This document shows positions 4,654 to 32,346 of a stretch of DNA of 59,899 nucleotides, piece after piece. The stretch is from Patescibacteria group bacterium. GTDB lineage: Bacteria; Patescibacteriota; Patescibacteriia; Magasanikbacterales; UBA922. The stretch covers positions 1-59,899 of the forward strand of contig JBAZZL010000004.1 of assembly GCA_041658785.1 (NCBI GenBank). The letters are read 5' to 3'. The first letter of the stretch is position 1; the number at the start of each line of letters is the position of its first letter. The notes under the pieces are model-generated. The model worked only from the letters and a program-made list of their open reading frames with translations, was not told where the DNA came from and did not search any database. Both the position numbers and the translations under genes were made by a program.

Positions 4654-4853
4654 ATTCTGAGTCTTTTTGAATTTGAAAATGTTAATTGTTAACTTTCAAA
4701 AGTTAACTGCTATTGTAAAGCACAACTCTGTGTTTCCGCAGTAATGCTTGATCTATTAGTACACCTTGGCTCAATCCTTTGCAGGACTTACACCTAGTGC
4801 CTATCAACGTCCTAGTCTCGGACGGATCTCAAATGAATGGTAATCTTGGGAAC

Positions 4854-4891
<38 letters not shown>

Positions 4892-5009
4892 AAACGTCGC
4901 TACCCGGCGATGTTCTTGGCAGAACAGCCGGCACACAAGAGGTTTGTCCATCTCGGTCCTCTCGTACTAGAGATGAATTCCCTCACCATTCGACGCCCAC
5001 AGCAGATAG

Positions 5010-5051
<42 letters not shown>

Positions 5052-5052
5052 T

Positions 5053-5091
<39 letters not shown>

Positions 5092-5092
5092 C

Positions 5093-5133
<41 letters not shown>

Positions 5134-5677
5134 GCGCCGTCGCTGTGGACGCTTGGGCGCGATCAGCCTGTTATCCCCAGAGTAGCTTTTATCTGTTGAG
5201 CTTCCGCGGTCCTATGTCCCACGGTCGGATCACTAACTTCTACTTTCGTAACTGCGCGGGCTATTACCCTTGCAGTAAAGCTGGCTTTTGCGTTTGCGCG
5301 TCCACTCCGATTTCCATCCGGAGCAAGCCAACCTTTGTAAACGCCTCCGTTACAATTTAGGAGGCAACCGCCCCAGTTAAACTACCCATCAGATACTGTC
5401 TCTATAGCCTCTATAAAGGCCACGGATTAGATATGTCACAGCACAAGGGTGGTATCTCACTGTTCCCCGACTTGCGCCGGGGTCCCACCTATGCTGAACA
5501 TGTGAAGCAACATATCAATATCAAATTGTAGTAAAGCTTCATGGGGTCTTTTCGTCTAGCTGCGGGAATGTCGCATCTTCACGACAATTGCATTTTCGCC
5601 GAGTACATGGTTAAGACAGTCTCCATATCGTTATGCCATTCGTGCGGGTCGGAACTCACCCGACAAGGAATTTCGCT

Positions 5678-6499
5678 TGAATAGTTGTTAATAATATTTA
5701 TTATTAACGTTCTAGACTGTTAACTAGAACCTGCATATCGCTATGCAGACCGAACCATTTCTTCATCCCGACAATGTCGGGAGGTTGGCGTATGGTCTCT
5801 GAGGATTTTTATCAAACTCTCTCTTGGTTTTTTTCTATTCATTGTTGACGCAATTTTAGCTATTTTCACCATTCCTTTGTTCGTTAAATGTTCCTGTCTT
5901 TGCATGCATATAACACACTCAACAAACTTTTCAAAATCTTCTTGCTTTGTAGTTTTTAATTTATACTTTTTAAAAAAAGGAATTATTATGTCAATTAAAT
6001 CTTCCCTTTTTCTAACTACAAATCTATAAAGATTTTCCTTATGATTATCATATCTGCGGTTGGGGTATATATAGCCGACACCAAAGTGTTTCTTCAAAAC
6101 TTCTAAAGAAGCTCTGCTTTTTTCACCTTGAGTAACTGCGAATTCATGAAAAGGTTGGTAGCCTGTTTTGTACCCTCTGCGTATTCTTGTTTTCTCTTTT
6201 CTGTCGGATTGTTTTATAAATCCAACAGAGAAGCATCCCTCGCCATCTACAAAACCTATTACCCAACCAAGTTCGATAAATCTTTCCTGCTGATTTTCTG
6301 CGCTAGTCATATTGTTACTAGTTTAATTAAACAAGGAATAATTATACCTTGTGATATTTTAACATAGTAATGCTAGATACACCAGATTTTTCAGCATATA
6401 GCCAACTATTTTAGGACATCTTATTCATTGCTGAATAAGTAGGCAACGATCTATCAATAACCGTCCCAGTCCTTGTTGAGTGGAGAATTCCACTCAACA
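5678..6499 (-). mobile_element. intervening sequence (intron-like) in 23S rRNA carrying a homing-endonuclease ORF
   Basis: The conserved exon string ...cggcggtaactataaccgtcctaaggt (rc of 6500-6527) is separated from its universal continuation agcgaaattccttgtcggg (rc of 5659-5677) by 822 nt. Confidence 0.85.
5741..6310 (-). CDS. LAGLIDADG homing endonuclease
   Basis: 189 aa. LGWVIGFVDGEGCFSV is a canonical LAGLIDADG motif. The ORF lies wholly inside the 23S intervening sequence. Confidence 0.9.
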   Translation of the reverse strand: MTSAENQQERFIELGWVIGFVDGEGCFSVGFIKQSDRKEKTRIRRGYKTGYQPFHEFAVTQGEKSRASLEVLKKHFGVGYIYPNRRYDNHKENLYRFVVRKREDLIDIIIPFFKKYKLKTTKQEDFEKFVECVICMQRQEHLTNKGMVKIAKIASTMNRKKPRESLIKILRDHTPTSRHCRDEEMVRSA

Positions 6500-7388
6500 A
6501 CCTTAGGACGGTTATAGTTACCGCCGGCGTTCATCAGCGCTTCAGTCGCAAGCTTCTCCCGACTAAGTCGGGATAACCCACTTCTTTAACGTTCTGACAC
6601 TGGCCAGGCATCACCCCCTATACTTCCTCTTGCGAGTTAGCAGAGAGCTGTGTTTTTGGTAAACAGTCGCATGGAGTCTTTAGCTGCGTCCCCCGTCTAC
6701 GCTTTCCGCTTCGCTTCAAGCTGCGCCGGACAAGCTGTACTTAATAAATACGAGCTTGCTCGGCGTAGTTCTTCACGAAATGAAGAGTGTAGACGAGGGA
6801 AGGCCTTATCCCGAAGTTACGGCCGCTTTTTTGCCGAGTTCCTAAACCATGTTTCTCTCGTGCGCCTTGGTCTTCTCGACCTACTCACCTGTGTTGGTTT
6901 GTGGTACGGTTAGATATAGCCTAACGACATTGTACTTTTCTTGGCACCTCTCCTGCATGACTTGACCGCCTCCGAAGATTTGATCTCATCCCCGAACGGG
7001 GAACGTATAGCCATACAACGCTCATACATTTAAAATGCGAATACAATGCCAAACTATACCAAGTGCAGGAATATTAACCTGCTCTTCCATCGGCTACCCT
7101 TGTTGAACAAGGTTTACCTTAGGACCGACTAACCCAGGGACGATTCACGTTGCCCTGGAAACCTTGAGTTTTCGGCGTGACGGACTTTCACCGTCATTTT
7201 TGCTACTTGTGCCTGCATTCTCTCTTCCCAATGCTCCACCGGCCCTTACGGGTCCGACTTCACTGCGTTGGGAATGCTCCTCTACCGTTCCGCATTACTG
7301 CGGAACCCGCAACTTCGGTATATCACTTGAGCCCCGGTACATTTTCAGCGCGAAGACTCTTGACCAGTGAGCTATTACGCTATCTTTA

Positions 7389-7426
<38 letters not shown>

Positions 7427-7814
7427 AGAATCAACACCACTTTTAACACTTAGTGATAATTTAGGGACCTTAGTTTGCGATCTGGGCTGTTTCCCTTTTG
7501 ACTATGAAGCTTAGCCCTCACAGTCTGACTTGCATACTATTAATCTCTGGTATTCGGAGTTTGATTGAAAGGGGTATCCCGAAGGACCCCGCTCTCATCC
7601 AGTGCTCTACCCCCAGAGGAAACATATACAGCTAGCCCTAAAGCTATTTCGAGGAGAACCAGCTATTACCGAGTTCGATTAGAATTTCTCCGCTATCCAC
7701 AACTCATCCCCGCGTGTTACACGGCGCGTGGGTTCGGTCCTCCCCCAACTTTTACGTTGGGTTCAACCTGGCCATGGATTGCTCACCCGGTTTCGGGTCT
7801 ATTCCGACAGACTA

Positions 7815-7903
7815 GTCTACGCTACGCTACGCCTAGTAAACGTTTTTATTATTATACTTACCAAAACTATAATAATAGTTTACGCGGCGAAGCGTAGCGA
7901 AGA
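7815..7903 (-). other. 23S expansion hairpin
   Basis: gtctacgctacgctacgcc ... ggcgaagcgtagcgaagac pair around an AT-rich tip (ttattattata / tataataata). Confidence 0.7.
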
Positions 7904-8007
7904 CGCGCCCTGTTAAGACTTGATTTCTCTATGGCTTCTCCCCAGAGGGGATTAACCAAGCCAGTCGGAATAACTCGCAGGCTCATTCTTCAATAGGAAC
8001 ACCATAA

Positions 8008-8120
8008 CCGATGCTGCGCATCGGAAATTCCAAAATACAAATCCCAAAATACAAACAATATTTATAAAAGTGTTTGTTTCTTGTTTCTCGTAATTTGAAA
8101 CTTCCGGTGCGAAGCACCGG
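8008..8120 (-). other. 23S expansion segment with AT-word repeats
   Basis: Small hairpins ccgatgctgcgcatcgg and ccggtgcgaagcaccgg flank ccaaaatacaaatcccaaaatacaaac / gtttgtttcttgtttc. Confidence 0.65.
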
Positions 8121-8551
8121 CGTTGGCTCTATGTAAGCATACGGTTTCAGATACTATTTCATCCCCCTTCCGGGGTGCTTTTCACCTTTCCCTCATGGTA
8201 CTCGTTCACTATCGATCACTGTTTATATTTAGTCTTAGGCCATAGTCGGCCCAGGTTCAGACGGGATTTCACGTGGCCCGTCCTACTCAGGAATATCTGC
8301 AATAATATATAAAATATTTCGCCTACGGGACTATCACCCGCTATGGTGCTCCGTTCCAGGAGTCTTTGACTATACTATATATATTACTTCCAGCTCAACA
8401 GGTAGCTGACGCAAATATCCTACAACACCTATACTGCAACGGCCTGTCCTTTAAGAATGATGTCAAAATAAGTCCGAAGACTGATCTATTCATCACCCAA
8501 CACAGCATAGGTTTGGACTGATCCGCTTTCGCTCGCCACTACTAACGGAAT

Positions 8552-8624
8552 CGAAACCACGAATCTCTATCACGAATCAACACGAATATAAAATTCGTGC
8601 AAATTCGTGTAAAGAATTCGTGGT
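8552..8624 (-). other. 23S expansion hairpin built from cacgaat / attcgtg words
   Basis: It is inserted between the conserved strings cgctcgccactact..ggaatc and gttagtttctttcttttcctc. It contains ccacgaat, cacgaat x2, then attcgtg x3. Confidence 0.75.
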
Positions 8625-8721
8625 GTTAGTTTCTTTCTTTTCCTCTGGCTACTGAGATGTTTCACTTCACCAGGTCTTCTCCATACACCTATGTATTCAG
8701 TGTATGGTACCAGTGTTTCAC

Positions 8722-8802
8722 GCTAGAAACCAATTTCAAAATTCAGAATTCAATCCGCCAGTTGGCGGAAGGATTTTGGATTTAAGATTTTGGATTTCCA
8801 GT
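8722..8802 (-). other. 23S expansion inside the 5'-domain hairpin closed by ccagtgtttcac / gtgaaacactgg
   Basis: ~80 extra nt with aatttcaaaattcagaattcaat, a ccgccagttggcgg hairpin and ggattttggatttaagattttggattt. Confidence 0.7.
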
Positions 8803-9154
8803 GTGAAACACTGGTGGGTTCCCCCATTCGGAAATTCCCGGGTCAAAGGTTGCTTGGGACCTCACCGAGACTTATCGCACCCTGCAACGTCCTTCATAGT
8901 TAAACAGTGTCAAGGCATCCACCGTACGCCCTTAATTTGCTTACTGCGAAAACACACAATTGTGCTTTCTTGCCACGCCTCCCGATTCAATCGGGATTAA
9001 CGTGGAAATGCTTTTAACATTCTCGTTGAATTGTAATGAACCTGCTCATTTTTCTTATACTACCCAATCTTACACACGAATTAACACCAAAATATATTCG
9101 TGTTAATTCGTGAAAAAAATTCGTGGTTATAATTCGTGTCAAAGATTCGCGGTT

Positions 9155-28530: not shown

Positions 28531-29778
28531 ATGTTTTTTGATATAACCCACAAATCATCCGACTGTCTCGCTCGTACTGGCATCATCCACACCGCGCACG
28601 GCGATATTGAGACGCCGGTTTTTATGCCGGTCGGCACGCAAGCGACAGTGAAAGCGCTGGATTCGGATGACCTCAAAAATCTTGACGCGCCAGTCATTCT
28701 CGCGAATACTTATCATTTGCACTTGCGGCCGGGCGAAAATTTAATTGCCGAACTTGGCGGACTGCATAAATTTATGAATTGGGACCGGCCGATTCTTACT
28801 GACTCCGGCGGTTTTCAAGTATTTTCACTCCAACACAAAAACATAACAACACCACAACACAACAACAATCAAAAATCTGAAATCATAAATCTGTCCCGCC
28901 GCAGCGGGACCCCGCTCGCTGCGGGGAAATCTGAAAGTGAAAGTGAACACAGCAATCTTGTAAAAATAGACAACGACGGCGTCACCTTTCACTCCCACAT
29001 CGACGGCTCCACTCACCGCTTCACCCCCGAATCCGCCATAGAAATTCAACACCAACTTGGCGCGGACATTATCATGGCCTTTGACGAATGTACGCCGGAT
29101 AATGTTTCAGAAGCAAAAGCCCGCGAGGCAATGGAACGGACGCATCAGTGGGCAGATCGTTCACTCACTTATCACCAACAAAATCTTAAATCTTCAATCT
29201 TCAATCTTCAATCACTCTTCGGCATCATCCAAGGCGCCAACTATCAAAAGCTTCGTGAAGAGTCTGCCCGCTTCATCTCCTCGCTAAACTTTGACGGCAT
29301 CGCCATCGGCGGCGAATCAGTCGGGTTTAATATGGAGGCGACTAAACAAATTCTGGACTGGGTGAACCCGATTATTCCGGAAGATAAACCCCATTACACC
29401 ATGGGCGTGGGACATTCGCCGTTGGATTTATTTGCCGTCGTGGAGCGCGGCGTGGATATGTTTGACTGCGTCTCGCCAACGAGGATGGCAAGAAACGGCG
29501 CGCTCTTTGTCCATCCAACGGTATCAAAAAAACACCGGATTGACATTACCAAATCAGAATTTAAAAAAGACGAACAGCCGATTGATCCGTCCTGCTCTTG
29601 TTCAACTTGTAAAAAATATTCCCGCGCCTATCTGAACCATCTTTTTAGCGCCAAAGAACTACTCGCTTACCGCTTGGCAACGATTCATAATGTGCATTTC
29701 TTTTTGGATTTGATGCGAGAGATTAGAAAAGCGATTAAAGAAGATAGTTTTTTGGAATTGAAGAGAAGCTGGGAATGA
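28531..29778 (+). CDS. tgt: queuine tRNA-ribosyltransferase with two repeat-derived in-frame insertions
   Basis: ARTGIIHTAHGDIETPVFMPVGT, TDSGGFQVFS, and the zinc site CSCSTCKKYSRAYLNHL. 415 aa. Confidence 0.92.
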   Translation: MFFDITHKSSDCLARTGIIHTAHGDIETPVFMPVGTQATVKALDSDDLKNLDAPVILANTYHLHLRPGENLIAELGGLHKFMNWDRPILTDSGGFQVFSLQHKNITTPQHNNNQKSEIINLSRRSGTPLAAGKSESESEHSNLVKIDNDGVTFHSHIDGSTHRFTPESAIEIQHQLGADIIMAFDECTPDNVSEAKAREAMERTHQWADRSLTYHQQNLKSSIFNLQSLFGIIQGANYQKLREESARFISSLNFDGIAIGGESVGFNMEATKQILDWVNPIIPEDKPHYTMGVGHSPLDLFAVVERGVDMFDCVSPTRMARNGALFVHPTVSKKHRIDITKSEFKKDEQPIDPSCSCSTCKKYSRAYLNHLFSAKELLAYRLATIHNVHFFLDLMREIRKAIKEDSFLELKRSWE

Positions 29779-29823
29779 TGGCTGGCGGTAGTCCGACAAG
29801 TAATCCTTCTGTTTATTAGCGCT

Positions 29824-29990
29824 GGCGGTAGCCCGACAACTCTATCTCTGTCTCTTTCCCTTATGAAGGGAAAGAGAACCCGTTAAGTAAGTTTAACTCT
29901 AATCCAATCGTAAGCCCCTTTCCCTTCGTACTTGTCCCGTCGGATACGGGAAGGGAAAGGGGTTGGGGATAGGGTTGTCGGACTACCACC
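29824..29990 (-). mobile_element. MITE-like foldback element, family 1, copy A (inverted relative to B and C)
   Basis: Termini are ggcggtagcccgacaac ... gttgtcggactaccacc. Internal hairpins are ctctttcccttatgaagggaaagag and cccctttcccttc..gaagggaaagggg. A solo terminus ggcggtagtccgacaag sits at 29784-29800. Confidence 0.8.
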
Positions 29991-30356
29991 GTCCCGGTAG
30001 ACAGAAGATAGATTATCTGGCCGCCACTCCTTATTATCCACAACCCAACCTTGTAATCTCTCCCTCTCTTTGCTAACATTCACTCCACTGGAGGTCCCAC
30101 ATGATAACAGCTTATCGGTGGGAGAGGTGGGGAGCAATCGGATGGATGTTGATTCCTCCGGATCCTTCTGATCATGAAGGGTCGCTGGTTTCAAACCGCC
30201 GACAATCCCCACCGCGGAACCGCCTCCGCTCTCATCATGATGACGTAGCCGGCCTCACTCCCGCCGCAAGGGAGAAGAGAGGCACCGGGGCCTGGACCCG
30301 GTAGGCAACACTCCGAGAGCGGAGACAGGGTAGGTGGGTGCCCTTTTTCATCCACC

Positions 30357-30450
30357 AGAGCGCGACCACACTGACCATAACATCACGTGGTCGCGCTCTC
30401 TCCTCAAATTCAATTCCACTCTTCGCGAAGAGTGGAATTTTGTTTTCTTT
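30357..30450 (+). terminator. tandem hairpins, the second followed by a T-run (plus-strand terminator)
   Basis: agagcgcgaccac..gtggtcgcgctct (30357-30399), then aattccactcttcgcgaagagtggaatt (30412-30439) + ttttgttttcttt. Confidence 0.7.
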
Positions 30451-30517
30451 CGCTTGAATAAAATCCAGTACTTTGCTAACATAATATTCCGTCACAACCC
30501 ACTAAAGGACAAGGGAA

Positions 30518-30736
30518 ATGAGAACGCCTCAAATTGTAGATCAGACCCTTGCGGTCGTGCAGTTCTTCCGGAACATAGCTCAAAGCCCTGAGATGGCGGC
30601 CTGGGCTAGGACATGGCTCCGGGCCAATGACCACCGCCTGCCCTGCCGGTTGGCGAGAAGCGCCGTCCGACGGCTCGACGGTCTGCTCCTCGGCAAGGAG
30701 ATTCGAGCGGCCTTCAACCCCGCCCGTTGGTGGTAG
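30518..30736 (+). CDS. possible 72-aa hypothetical protein in a GC-rich island
   Basis: The ORF lies between two terminator-like hairpins. There is no family match, and GC-rich DNA gives spurious ORFs on both strands here. Confidence 0.2.
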   Translation: MRTPQIVDQTLAVVQFFRNIAQSPEMAAWARTWLRANDHRLPCRLARSAVRRLDGLLLGKEIRAAFNPARWW

Positions 30737-30800
30737 CGATGGCCGTCGGGTAGCCACGACACCAGCAGTAACCAGGAGGGATTGAAATTCACGGACGAAA

Positions 30801-30875
30801 AACAAAACCGACTGGCCACTGCGCAAGTTTCTGTGGTAAACAGAAATTTACGTAGGAGTTCCAGTCGGTTTTGTT
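30801..30875. terminator. long hairpin downstream of ruvC
   Basis: aacaaaaccgactgg (30801-30815) pairs with ccagtcggttttgtt (30861-30875). T-rich sequence follows on both strands. Confidence 0.6.
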
Positions 30876-30919
30876 GTTTTCAAATTTCTTCCGTAGGTGG
30901 ACACTATCTGCCTCTGTCT

Positions 30920-31426
30920 TTAACGCACGCCGCGCATTCTCAAACTCGCTCCGCCGGTTAGCGCCGCGGCCAAAGCGTCGGCCGCGTCGTCTTGGAGCGA
31001 AGCGCATTTTAGATGCAAAATCACTTTCACCATTTTTTGCATCTGTCCTTTCTCGGCTCGGCCATAGCCGGTCATGGCCTGCTTGACCTGCAGAGGAGTG
31101 AATTCGTCAATCGGCATGCCCGCTTGAGACAGCGTCAGCAAAATCACGCCCCGCGCCTGCCCCACTTTCATGGCGGTCTTTACATTTTTGAAAAAAAACA
31201 AATCCTCCACCGCGGCGCGATCCGGATGATATTTTTTTATTATTTTGTTCAGCTCCCGGTGCAATTCCGCGAGCCGATCAGTAAACGGCTCCCCCGCGCC
31301 GGTTTCAATACAGCCATGGGCGACATGAATCCAGTCGCCATTCTGTTTTTCAATCACGCCCCAACCGATACGACCGAAGCCCGGGTCAATGCCAATGATA
31401 CGTACTTTCTGTGAATTTGCGCTCAT
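30920..31426 (-). CDS. ruvC: crossover junction endodeoxyribonuclease RuvC
   Basis: IIGIDPGFGRIGWGVIE, and EDLFFFKNVKTAMKVGQARGV. 168 aa. Confidence 0.9.
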   Translation of the reverse strand: MSANSQKVRIIGIDPGFGRIGWGVIEKQNGDWIHVAHGCIETGAGEPFTDRLAELHRELNKIIKKYHPDRAAVEDLFFFKNVKTAMKVGQARGVILLTLSQAGMPIDEFTPLQVKQAMTGYGRAEKGQMQKMVKVILHLKCASLQDDAADALAAALTGGASLRMRGVR

Positions 31427-31446
31427 AATTTATCGCCCACTGCATA

Positions 31447-31604
31447 AATTCACCTAATTAACCTAATTGTCTAATTCACCCATTCGGCTTCGCTCAGGGC
31501 AAGCTCTAATAAAATATCAAATGTCTAATAACAAAATCTCTCTTGGGGTTTAGTTATTAGAAATTTTTTAGGTGAATTAGGTGAATTAGAAATTAGGTGA
31601 ATTT
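31447..31604. repeat. foldback: cacctaatt-word arm, 88-nt core, inverted aattaggtg-word arm
   Basis: aattcacctaattaacctaattgtctaattcaccc (31447-31481) pairs with aggtgaattaggtgaattagaaattaggtgaattt (31570-31604). Confidence 0.9.
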
Positions 31605-31611
31605 GAAGCCA

Positions 31612-32346
31612 TCAGGCTTCATTGGTATACACCTCTTTCACATCCTCCAGCTCTTCCAACGCGCCAAACAACTCCGCCATTTTTTTGGAAATATTTTCAT
31701 CAACCTTAATCTCCTCCTTCGCCACCCACTCCGATCCGGCGCTCGCCGGTTCAATACCAAAAGAACGCCCCGCTTCCAAAACCTTCTGAAACTTTTCCAT
31801 CGAACAGCGAATTTCCATCCCGAACTCGCTATCAACAATATCATCAGCGCCGGCGTCAATCAGTGCCAATTCAAAATCGGACTTTTCACTTTGGACTTTG
31901 GACTTTTGACTTTCATCAAGACGGACTACGCCCAACTGCCCAAACTGCCACCGCACGCTCCCCGGTCCGCCAAGCGAACCGCCGTATTTGGAAAACACGT
32001 TCTTCAATTCTCCGACCGTGCGGTTGGTGTTATCAGTAATCGTTTCAATCAAAATCGCGACACCGCCCGGCCCGTATCCTTCGTAAATCACTTCCTGAAT
32101 CGCGGCTTCGTCTTTCAATTCGCCGGTGCCGCGCTTGATCGCGTGGTCAATCTTGTCTTTCGGCACATTGCCGGCCCGGGCTTTCTCAATCGCGAGCCGC
32201 AGAGAAAAATTCGTATCTACTTCTCCCCCGCCCTGCTGGGCCGCGACTGTAACCGCCCGGCAAAGTTTGGTAAACAAATCCCCCCGCATCGCGTCCCGCT
32301 TGCCTTTTTTCTGTTGAATATTGTGCCACTTGGAGTGACCGGACAT
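31612..32346 (-). CDS. yebC: YebC/PmpR-family transcriptional regulator
   Basis: MSGHSKWHNIQQKKGKRDAMRG start. 244 aa. Confidence 0.92.
   Translation of the reverse strand: MSGHSKWHNIQQKKGKRDAMRGDLFTKLCRAVTVAAQQGGGEVDTNFSLRLAIEKARAGNVPKDKIDHAIKRGTGELKDEAAIQEVIYEGYGPGGVAILIETITDNTNRTVGELKNVFSKYGGSLGGPGSVRWQFGQLGVVRLDESQKSKVQSEKSDFELALIDAGADDIVDSEFGMEIRCSMEKFQKVLEAGRSFGIEPASAGSEWVAKEEIKVDENISKKMAELFGALEELEDVKEVYTNEA

Follow-up and report, generated by a model that had tools for sequence, protein, structure and literature searches.

A GC-rich island between tgt and ruvC

The DNA described here, which we call the window, is a stretch of 59,899 nucleotides corresponding to contig C4 of a bacterial genome assembly (G000; 1.196 Mb in 63 contigs, 43.9% GC, estimated completeness 99.97%). 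The host is an uncultured member of the Patescibacteria (CPR) from groundwater. Downstream of its tgt gene lies a MITE-like element, then some 0.9 kb of GC-rich DNA that we refer to as the island, and then ruvC, which points back toward it. On the plus strand of the island we distinguish two candidate units, U1 and U2. The features of the region, those of U1 and U2 being predictions, are as follows.

28531-29778, plus strand: tgt, the upstream neighbour of the island
29784-29990: MITE-like palindromic element adjoining the island on its upstream side
30051-30079, plus strand: U1 promoter, with TTGTAA (-35), a 17-nt spacer ending in TGC (extended -10) and TAACAT (-10)
About 30087-30450, plus strand: U1, from promoter to intrinsic terminator
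30090-30304, plus strand: GGAGG (30090-30094), 6 nt, then an ORF of 67 codons from ATG (30101) to TAG (30302-30304)
30095-30213, plus strand: U1 domain A, made up of hairpin P1 (30095-30123), which holds the ATG, and a long irregular hairpin P2 (30126-30213)
30214-30356, plus strand: U1 domain B, made up of a small hairpin (30214-30223), a branched helix (30224-30324) and a hairpin (30333-30356)
30357-30399, plus strand: U1 end hairpin, 13 bp and perfect
30412-30450, plus strand only: U1 intrinsic terminator, a 14-bp palindrome (30412-30439) and then a T-run, TTTTGTTTTCTTT
30454-30482, plus strand: U2 promoter, with TTGAAT, a 17-nt spacer ending in TGC and TAACAT, in the same register as that of U1
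About 30490-30880, plus strand: U2, from the second promoter to the hairpin it has in common with ruvC
30505-30736, plus strand: U2 gene, with AAGGA (30505-30509), 8 nt, then ATG (30518) and 72 codons
30798-30878, both strands: bidirectional terminator hairpin (A-run, nested stems, T-run) serving U2 and the convergent ruvC
30920-31426, minus strand: ruvC, the convergent downstream neighbour of the island

The first-pass annotation of this DNA had been struck by a jump in base composition, and our recount agrees: 41 of the 60 nucleotides at 30601-30660 are G or C. Measured in windows of 200 nt, GC stands at 0.60-0.65 over 30100-30399 and 30500-30799 and falls to 0.44-0.48 between these two blocks; just 0.64% of such windows genome-wide reach 0.63. 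Among the 340 gaps of the genome that span at least 200 nt without an ORF of at least 130 aa, this one contains the highest 200-nt GC of all (0.675). Structural constraint alone does not account for such values, since the known structured RNAs of the genome are much lower in GC (RNase P RNA, 0.495; tmRNA, 0.45; 23S rRNA, 0.453) than U1 and U2, at 0.60 each. As an aside, the 23S rRNA match (4736-8947, minus strand) spans 4212 nt against a model of 2925 positions, which suggests a 23S gene with about 1.3 kb of insertions or introns. The earlier description of the island as holding only short, overlapping ORFs on both strands also stands, the longest being 116 aa, and every stem, hairpin and T-run it had listed was located where it had been placed.

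The island is real, single-copy and an orphan: none of the other genomes searched yielded it. BLASTN against the host's own genome found no second copy; with 30000-30900 as query and E<0.1, its sole match in the rest of the genome was a 17-nt promoter identity on contig C7, which we return to below. A search around the island for flanking or terminal repeats found none. Nor did we find a relative in about 700 Patescibacteria genomes or in phage, plasmid, viral and metagenome collections. BLASTN yielded only chance-level matches of 18-40 nt, whether run on phages, plasmids, the host genome, 60 relatives or 400 genomes of the phylum. Covariance models, each built from a single sequence, were prepared for U1 domains A and B; neither had a match in 100 genomes of the family, and that of domain A had none in 150 genomes of the class. 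A search of viral loci returned nothing. Exact-pattern scans did produce matches, to a 19-mer in genome contigs and a 17-mer in viral contigs, all of which we discarded as unrelated coding regions read in different frames. A pattern built from the loops only (21 specified bases, free stems) gave three matches in metagenome contigs, all of them lacking the hairpin.

Protein searches ended in the same way. Pfam gave nothing below E 0.1 for seven island ORFs, those of U1 and U2 included, the 116-aa minus-strand ORF had no tblastn match in plasmids, and the look-alikes offered by a protein atlas were generic helical hairpins that we set aside. The first-pass annotation had named a clear protein homology, with frameshifts allowed, as one result that would overturn its reading; none emerged from the Pfam, word-index, HMMER, viral and plasmid searches. 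A decayed known gene we reject on the same grounds, there being no Pfam match below E 0.1 and no homologue by word-index search or HMMER. The island may be a foreign fragment, but no donor turned up in the collections searched.

Two putative promoters in register

Each half of the island opens with what looks like a complete sigma-70 promoter with an extended -10 element (TTGnnn, 17-nt spacer, TGn, TAnnnT). Both have the form TTGnnn-17-TAACAT and contain the same 11-mer, TTTGCTAACAT; a 12-mer, CTTTGCTAACAT, recurs within them at 30068 and 30471, and in both a spacing of exactly 17 nt separates a TTGnAn hexamer from the TAACAT that follows it. Genome-wide there are 71 matches to the pattern TTGNNN-14-TGN-TANNAT, 51 of them in ORF-poor DNA and 20 in the rest. 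ORF-poor DNA makes up 18.6% of the genome and carries the pattern at 11-fold higher density, so that it behaves like a housekeeping promoter; its matches take in the promoter of the pyr operon. Beyond the promoter 12-mer, U1 and U2 have no sequence in common, and we do not regard them as duplicates of one another.

The 17-nt identity mentioned above belongs to the second promoter: 30468-30484 and C7:38446-38462 (minus strand) both read AGTACTTTGCTAACATA. The identity takes in spacer bases that are not normally constrained in promoters (BLAST E 0.054), and the site on C7, itself promoter-like, precedes a gene at the contig's end.

Our preferred reading, to which we give about an even chance, is that the island, orphan DNA in a variable slot, carries a pair of mini transcription units on its plus strand, each independent of the other and of sigma-70 type. 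The two promoters would drive separate transcripts, and from their positions we infer starts near 30087 and 30490. The first-pass annotation had itself proposed a plus-strand unit ending at a double hairpin and T-run and a second unit after it; this division survives, with a second unit that shows no structure and looks like a small protein gene. One figure that tells against two cassettes is the chance, estimated from base composition at roughly 10%, of meeting an open frame of about 70 codons in sequence of 60% GC.

The most serious competitor, which we consider unlikely, is that the island is inert filler, either GC-rich DNA that is foreign or decayed, or an accumulation of old hairpin elements, and that its promoter-like and ORF-like features do nothing. 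It would sit well with the want of any relative in our searches and of conservation even within the genus. In its favour, too, the structure of the U1 core is only moderately unusual, and other GC-rich, hairpin-laden, ORF-poor gaps of the genome fold as strongly as the island or more so, with z down to -8.2. What it explains poorly is the order of the parts: two full promoter matches in register, each followed by a ribosome-binding site with an ATG and then by a terminator. Just 51 promoter-pattern matches exist in all the ORF-poor DNA of the genome, and two of them fall here, 403 nt apart and on the same, plus, strand. The island also has no sequence in common with the genome's repeat families, and its edges carry no terminal repeats.

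The comparable gaps lie at C31:1-358, C3:4300-4685, C1:4640-4909, C10:26070-26339 and C7:3720-3989, and some fold at z -4.8 to -8.2. The gaps in C31 and C3 both contain GGTAACCCGCACCTCATCCC, and motifs are shared among some of the gaps. These other GC-rich hairpin stretches look like selfish or junk DNA.

A structured RNA candidate and a probable small orphan gene

If U1 is transcribed as predicted, its RNA would be about 265-365 nt long, with several GC-rich helices, and would end at tandem hairpins and an intrinsic terminator. In the predicted fold, P2 of domain A is closed by GGTGGGGA (30126) and TCCCCACC (30206), and the branched helix of domain B by CTCCGCTCTC (30224) and GAGAGCGGAG (30315), with a hairpin CTCCC-GCCGCAA-GGGAG at 30258. 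A weak terminator-like site at 30327-30349 overlaps the last hairpin of domain B (30333-30356). The plus-strand double hairpin with T-run that had been called at 30357-30450 is there, as the 13-bp hairpin, the 14-bp palindrome and the T-run behind it. A GC-rich stem-loop followed by a T-run, the signature of an intrinsic terminator, is present both at 30412-30439 and at 30798-30878. That of U1 is one-sided, there being no T-run behind the stem on the minus strand, and it is this terminator together with the promoter, not the fold, that sets the strand of U1. Separately, 30428-30455, the 3' half of the terminator with its T-run, matches C6:8837-8864 over 28 nt at 89% identity, which may reflect a shared terminator type or chance.

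How structured U1 is depends on what is folded. The whole of 30085-30450 scores z -8.8 on the plus strand and -7.6 on the minus strand against shuffles, most of which comes from the two perfect terminal hairpins. Without them, the core (30087-30356) scores -3.1 to -3.6 on either strand; tmRNA and RNase P RNA of the same genome score -3.2 and -5.3. This is a hairpin-rich genome, and 2 of 25 random 270-nt windows (about 8%) reach the value of the core. Domain A is the stronger part: on the plus strand 30093-30215 gives z -5.25 (60 shuffles) or -4.3 (200 shuffles), against -3.4 on the minus strand, its minimum free energy and centroid structures agree, and z -4 is reached in 2% of 200 random 123-nt windows of the genome. 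Domain B (30212-30330) scores only about -2.0. The first-pass annotation had called 30100-30350 highly self-complementary; the stems are indeed present, and with the terminal hairpins left out the core proves to have a moderate excess of structure.

The U1 ORF underlies another account of the locus: that both units are small orphan protein genes, of 67 and 72 aa, and that the stems of U1 are just the structure of a GC-rich mRNA. U1 has the same layout as U2, with a textbook GGAGG, 6 nt and ATG beginning about 14 nt past the predicted start, an open frame of 67 codons and terminators behind it. Set against this, GC at codon positions 1, 2 and 3 of the ORF is flat (0.60, 0.61 and 0.58) and the ATG is buried in predicted hairpin P1. 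The peptide would be mostly low-complexity, rich in Arg and Pro; it has no Pfam match, is absent from a collection of 5.8 billion proteins and is not in the Atlas. Its Atlas recognition is 1350, against a level of 2300 that 91 of 100 proteins of known families reach, and 9 of 100 shuffled or reversed ones. We think two protein genes quite unlikely. The flat codon GC, the enclosed ATG, the absence from the protein collection and the low recognition lead us to favour a non-coding RNA as the probable reading of U1, a small mRNA being a real alternative, and to regard the 67-codon ORF as probably not a real protein. Most likely, U1 would act as an RNA, or be a young transcript without a settled role, and would not work through its ORF.

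U2 is a different matter. It has the marks expected of a small gene, namely a ribosome-binding site, a start codon, an open frame and a codon-position bias, GC at positions 1, 2 and 3 being 0.63, 0.53 and 0.72. The order GC3 > GC1 > GC2 is that expected of a gene from GC-rich DNA. The body of U2 shows no excess of RNA structure (z -0.3), and it is therefore not a second structured RNA. Its ORF is present in a public protein collection as predicted protein P0001, and the predicted product is a basic protein of 72 residues, rich in Arg and Trp, for which the Atlas model is weak and helical (pLDDT 0.60). A word-index search and exhaustive HMMER over 1.84 billion cluster representatives found no homologue beyond U2 itself. 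One candidate, P0002, we rejected; it consists of tandem 82-residue repeats and owes its score to eight weak repeat matches added together. Judged by these features, U2 is probably a small orphan protein gene, in which case its transcript would be an ordinary small mRNA, translated into the 72-residue basic protein and ending at the hairpin in common with ruvC.

An altogether more speculative idea, and a long shot, is that U1 founds a new class of structured RNAs, about 270 nt long and narrow in distribution, that it perhaps partners the basic protein of U2, and that the pair was acquired by one lineage of Patescibacteria.

We give very little credence to U1 being an SRP RNA, 6S RNA, tmRNA or RNase P RNA so divergent that the Rfam models miss it. 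What lends this some interest is that two roles stand unfilled: neither SRP RNA (RF00169, RF01854) nor 6S RNA (RF00013) has a match anywhere in the genome. The first-pass annotation had suggested a check for tmRNA, RNase P RNA, 6S RNA and other large non-coding classes, and the check drew a blank. Rfam 15 (4227 models) run on 29000-32000 at E up to 1 has no match in the island; at E up to 10, 30060-30460 returns only a generic terminator-like match, at 13 bits where the gathering score is 50. ARAGORN finds no tRNA or tmRNA in the island. Both tmRNA (C25:12075-12478, 137.5 bits) and RNase P RNA (C40:6217-6681, 113.6 bits) are encoded on other contigs of the genome. The predicted fold of U1 is multi-branched, unlike the rod with paired ends and a central bubble that defines 6S RNA. 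An SRP RNA would lack its partner, because neither the Ffh M domain (PF02978) nor the SRP54-type GTPase of Ffh and FtsY (PF00448) has a match in the host genome, and for U1 we reject an SRP role on this ground. A six-frame scan of ORFs of at least 150 aa found no DTAGR or TKxDG motif, and tblastn with the SRP54-type GTPase domain gave weak partial matches only (best E 0.004). Finally, one would expect the sister species and the family to conserve a housekeeping RNA, and U1 shows no such conservation.

We find no SRP pathway in the host, and the result extends beyond this one genome. PF00448 scores over its cut-off in 0 of 31 genomes of the order and in 2 of 201 genomes of the phylum; SecY, as a control, was found in 29 of the 31. 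A limited look-up of the literature turned up no statement that the pathway is absent.

A variable slot downstream of tgt

The sister species G001 provides the one point of comparison. There, what comes after tgt is another orphan ORF, some 100 codons long (L065:2761-3206), and then a hairpin, about 390 nt downstream of tgt, that aligns with 30798-30878. This hairpin is the sole part of the region that is conserved between the two; 4 of its 25 pairs are changed on both sides with pairing kept. The ORF in the slot of G001 has 45.7% GC in a locus of 37% GC, no Pfam match and no homologue that we could find, and it is not an orthologue of the ORF of either U1 or U2, with which it has no similarity. 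Downstream of ruvC, the same species has an AT-rich spacer and another neighbour, and in other genera other genes follow tgt. Since the hairpin lies downstream of tgt in both species, the linkage of the two is ancestral to the genus. By sequence comparison, the DNA between tgt and the hairpin has either been replaced or changed so far that it is no longer recognisable, and rearrangement has affected what lies past the hairpin. As far as alignment can tell, then, tgt to terminator is a variable slot that holds unrelated orphan sequences in two sister species.

The reads speak to the integrity of the contig. An identical contig of 1537 nt, covering 29954-31490 (the island and all of ruvC) with no differences, was recovered from two runs of two separate studies, one of groundwater, which may be the source, and the other of landfill. 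Its depth is 11.3 and 15.2, with flanks at 12.7/14.6 and 14.0/13.3, so the coverage check that had been proposed for a chimeric join shows no break, the island being as deep as its flanks in both runs. Unitigs of the public runs break just at the repeats on either side, 29861-29954 and 31490-31575, and the first of these junctions rests on short contigs that bridge the repeat. None of the runs listed as containing the stretch is recorded as RNA. Despite these breaks and a GC step of about 20 points, we find it scarcely credible that an assembly chimera joined the DNA of a GC-richer organism into the contig, given the two identical contigs at flanking depth, a terminator at the 3' end of the island that has its orthologue behind tgt in G001, and two promoters that fit the host's own pattern.

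Set beside known systems, U1 resembles the lineage-specific small RNA genes of bacteria in its sigma-70-type promoter, its rho-independent terminator and its lack of codon periodicity, and also in having a GC-rich, multi-helix body in an AT-richer genome. Screens of intergenic regions by GC versus length use such GC-rich bodies to find structured RNAs. U1 differs from these genes in the canonical ribosome-binding site and ATG at its 5' end, in its only moderate structure score and in having no homologue from which covariation might be read. U2 resembles the ORFan small protein genes that occupy variable slots, with its promoter, Shine-Dalgarno sequence, 72-codon ORF and terminator, its lack of a homologue and a sister species carrying another orphan ORF in the slot. 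It differs from them in its GC content, which exceeds the genome mean by about 18 points and suggests that U2 is of unusual origin or was acquired recently. The island also recalls the REP, REPIN and MITE repeats abundant in this genome, having GC-rich hairpins at a gene junction beside just such an element. It differs in being single-copy, without terminal inverted repeats and with no sequence in common, and we do not count it as one of these families. Toxin-antitoxin systems were considered and rejected as well: type I, since U1 and U2 are on the same strand and do not overlap, and type III, since there are no tandem repeats; neither ORF has a Pfam match.

For the present, the analysis is useful mainly because it rules out a misassembly, a pseudogene and a housekeeping RNA that had been overlooked, leaving an orphan of a single genome. 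Should U1 and U2 prove to be transcribed, this ultra-small CPR genome would contain two genes that are either very young or of recent acquisition. CPR genomes are believed to face strong pressure against growth in size, and the slot between tgt and its terminator could serve the study of how such genomes gain genes.
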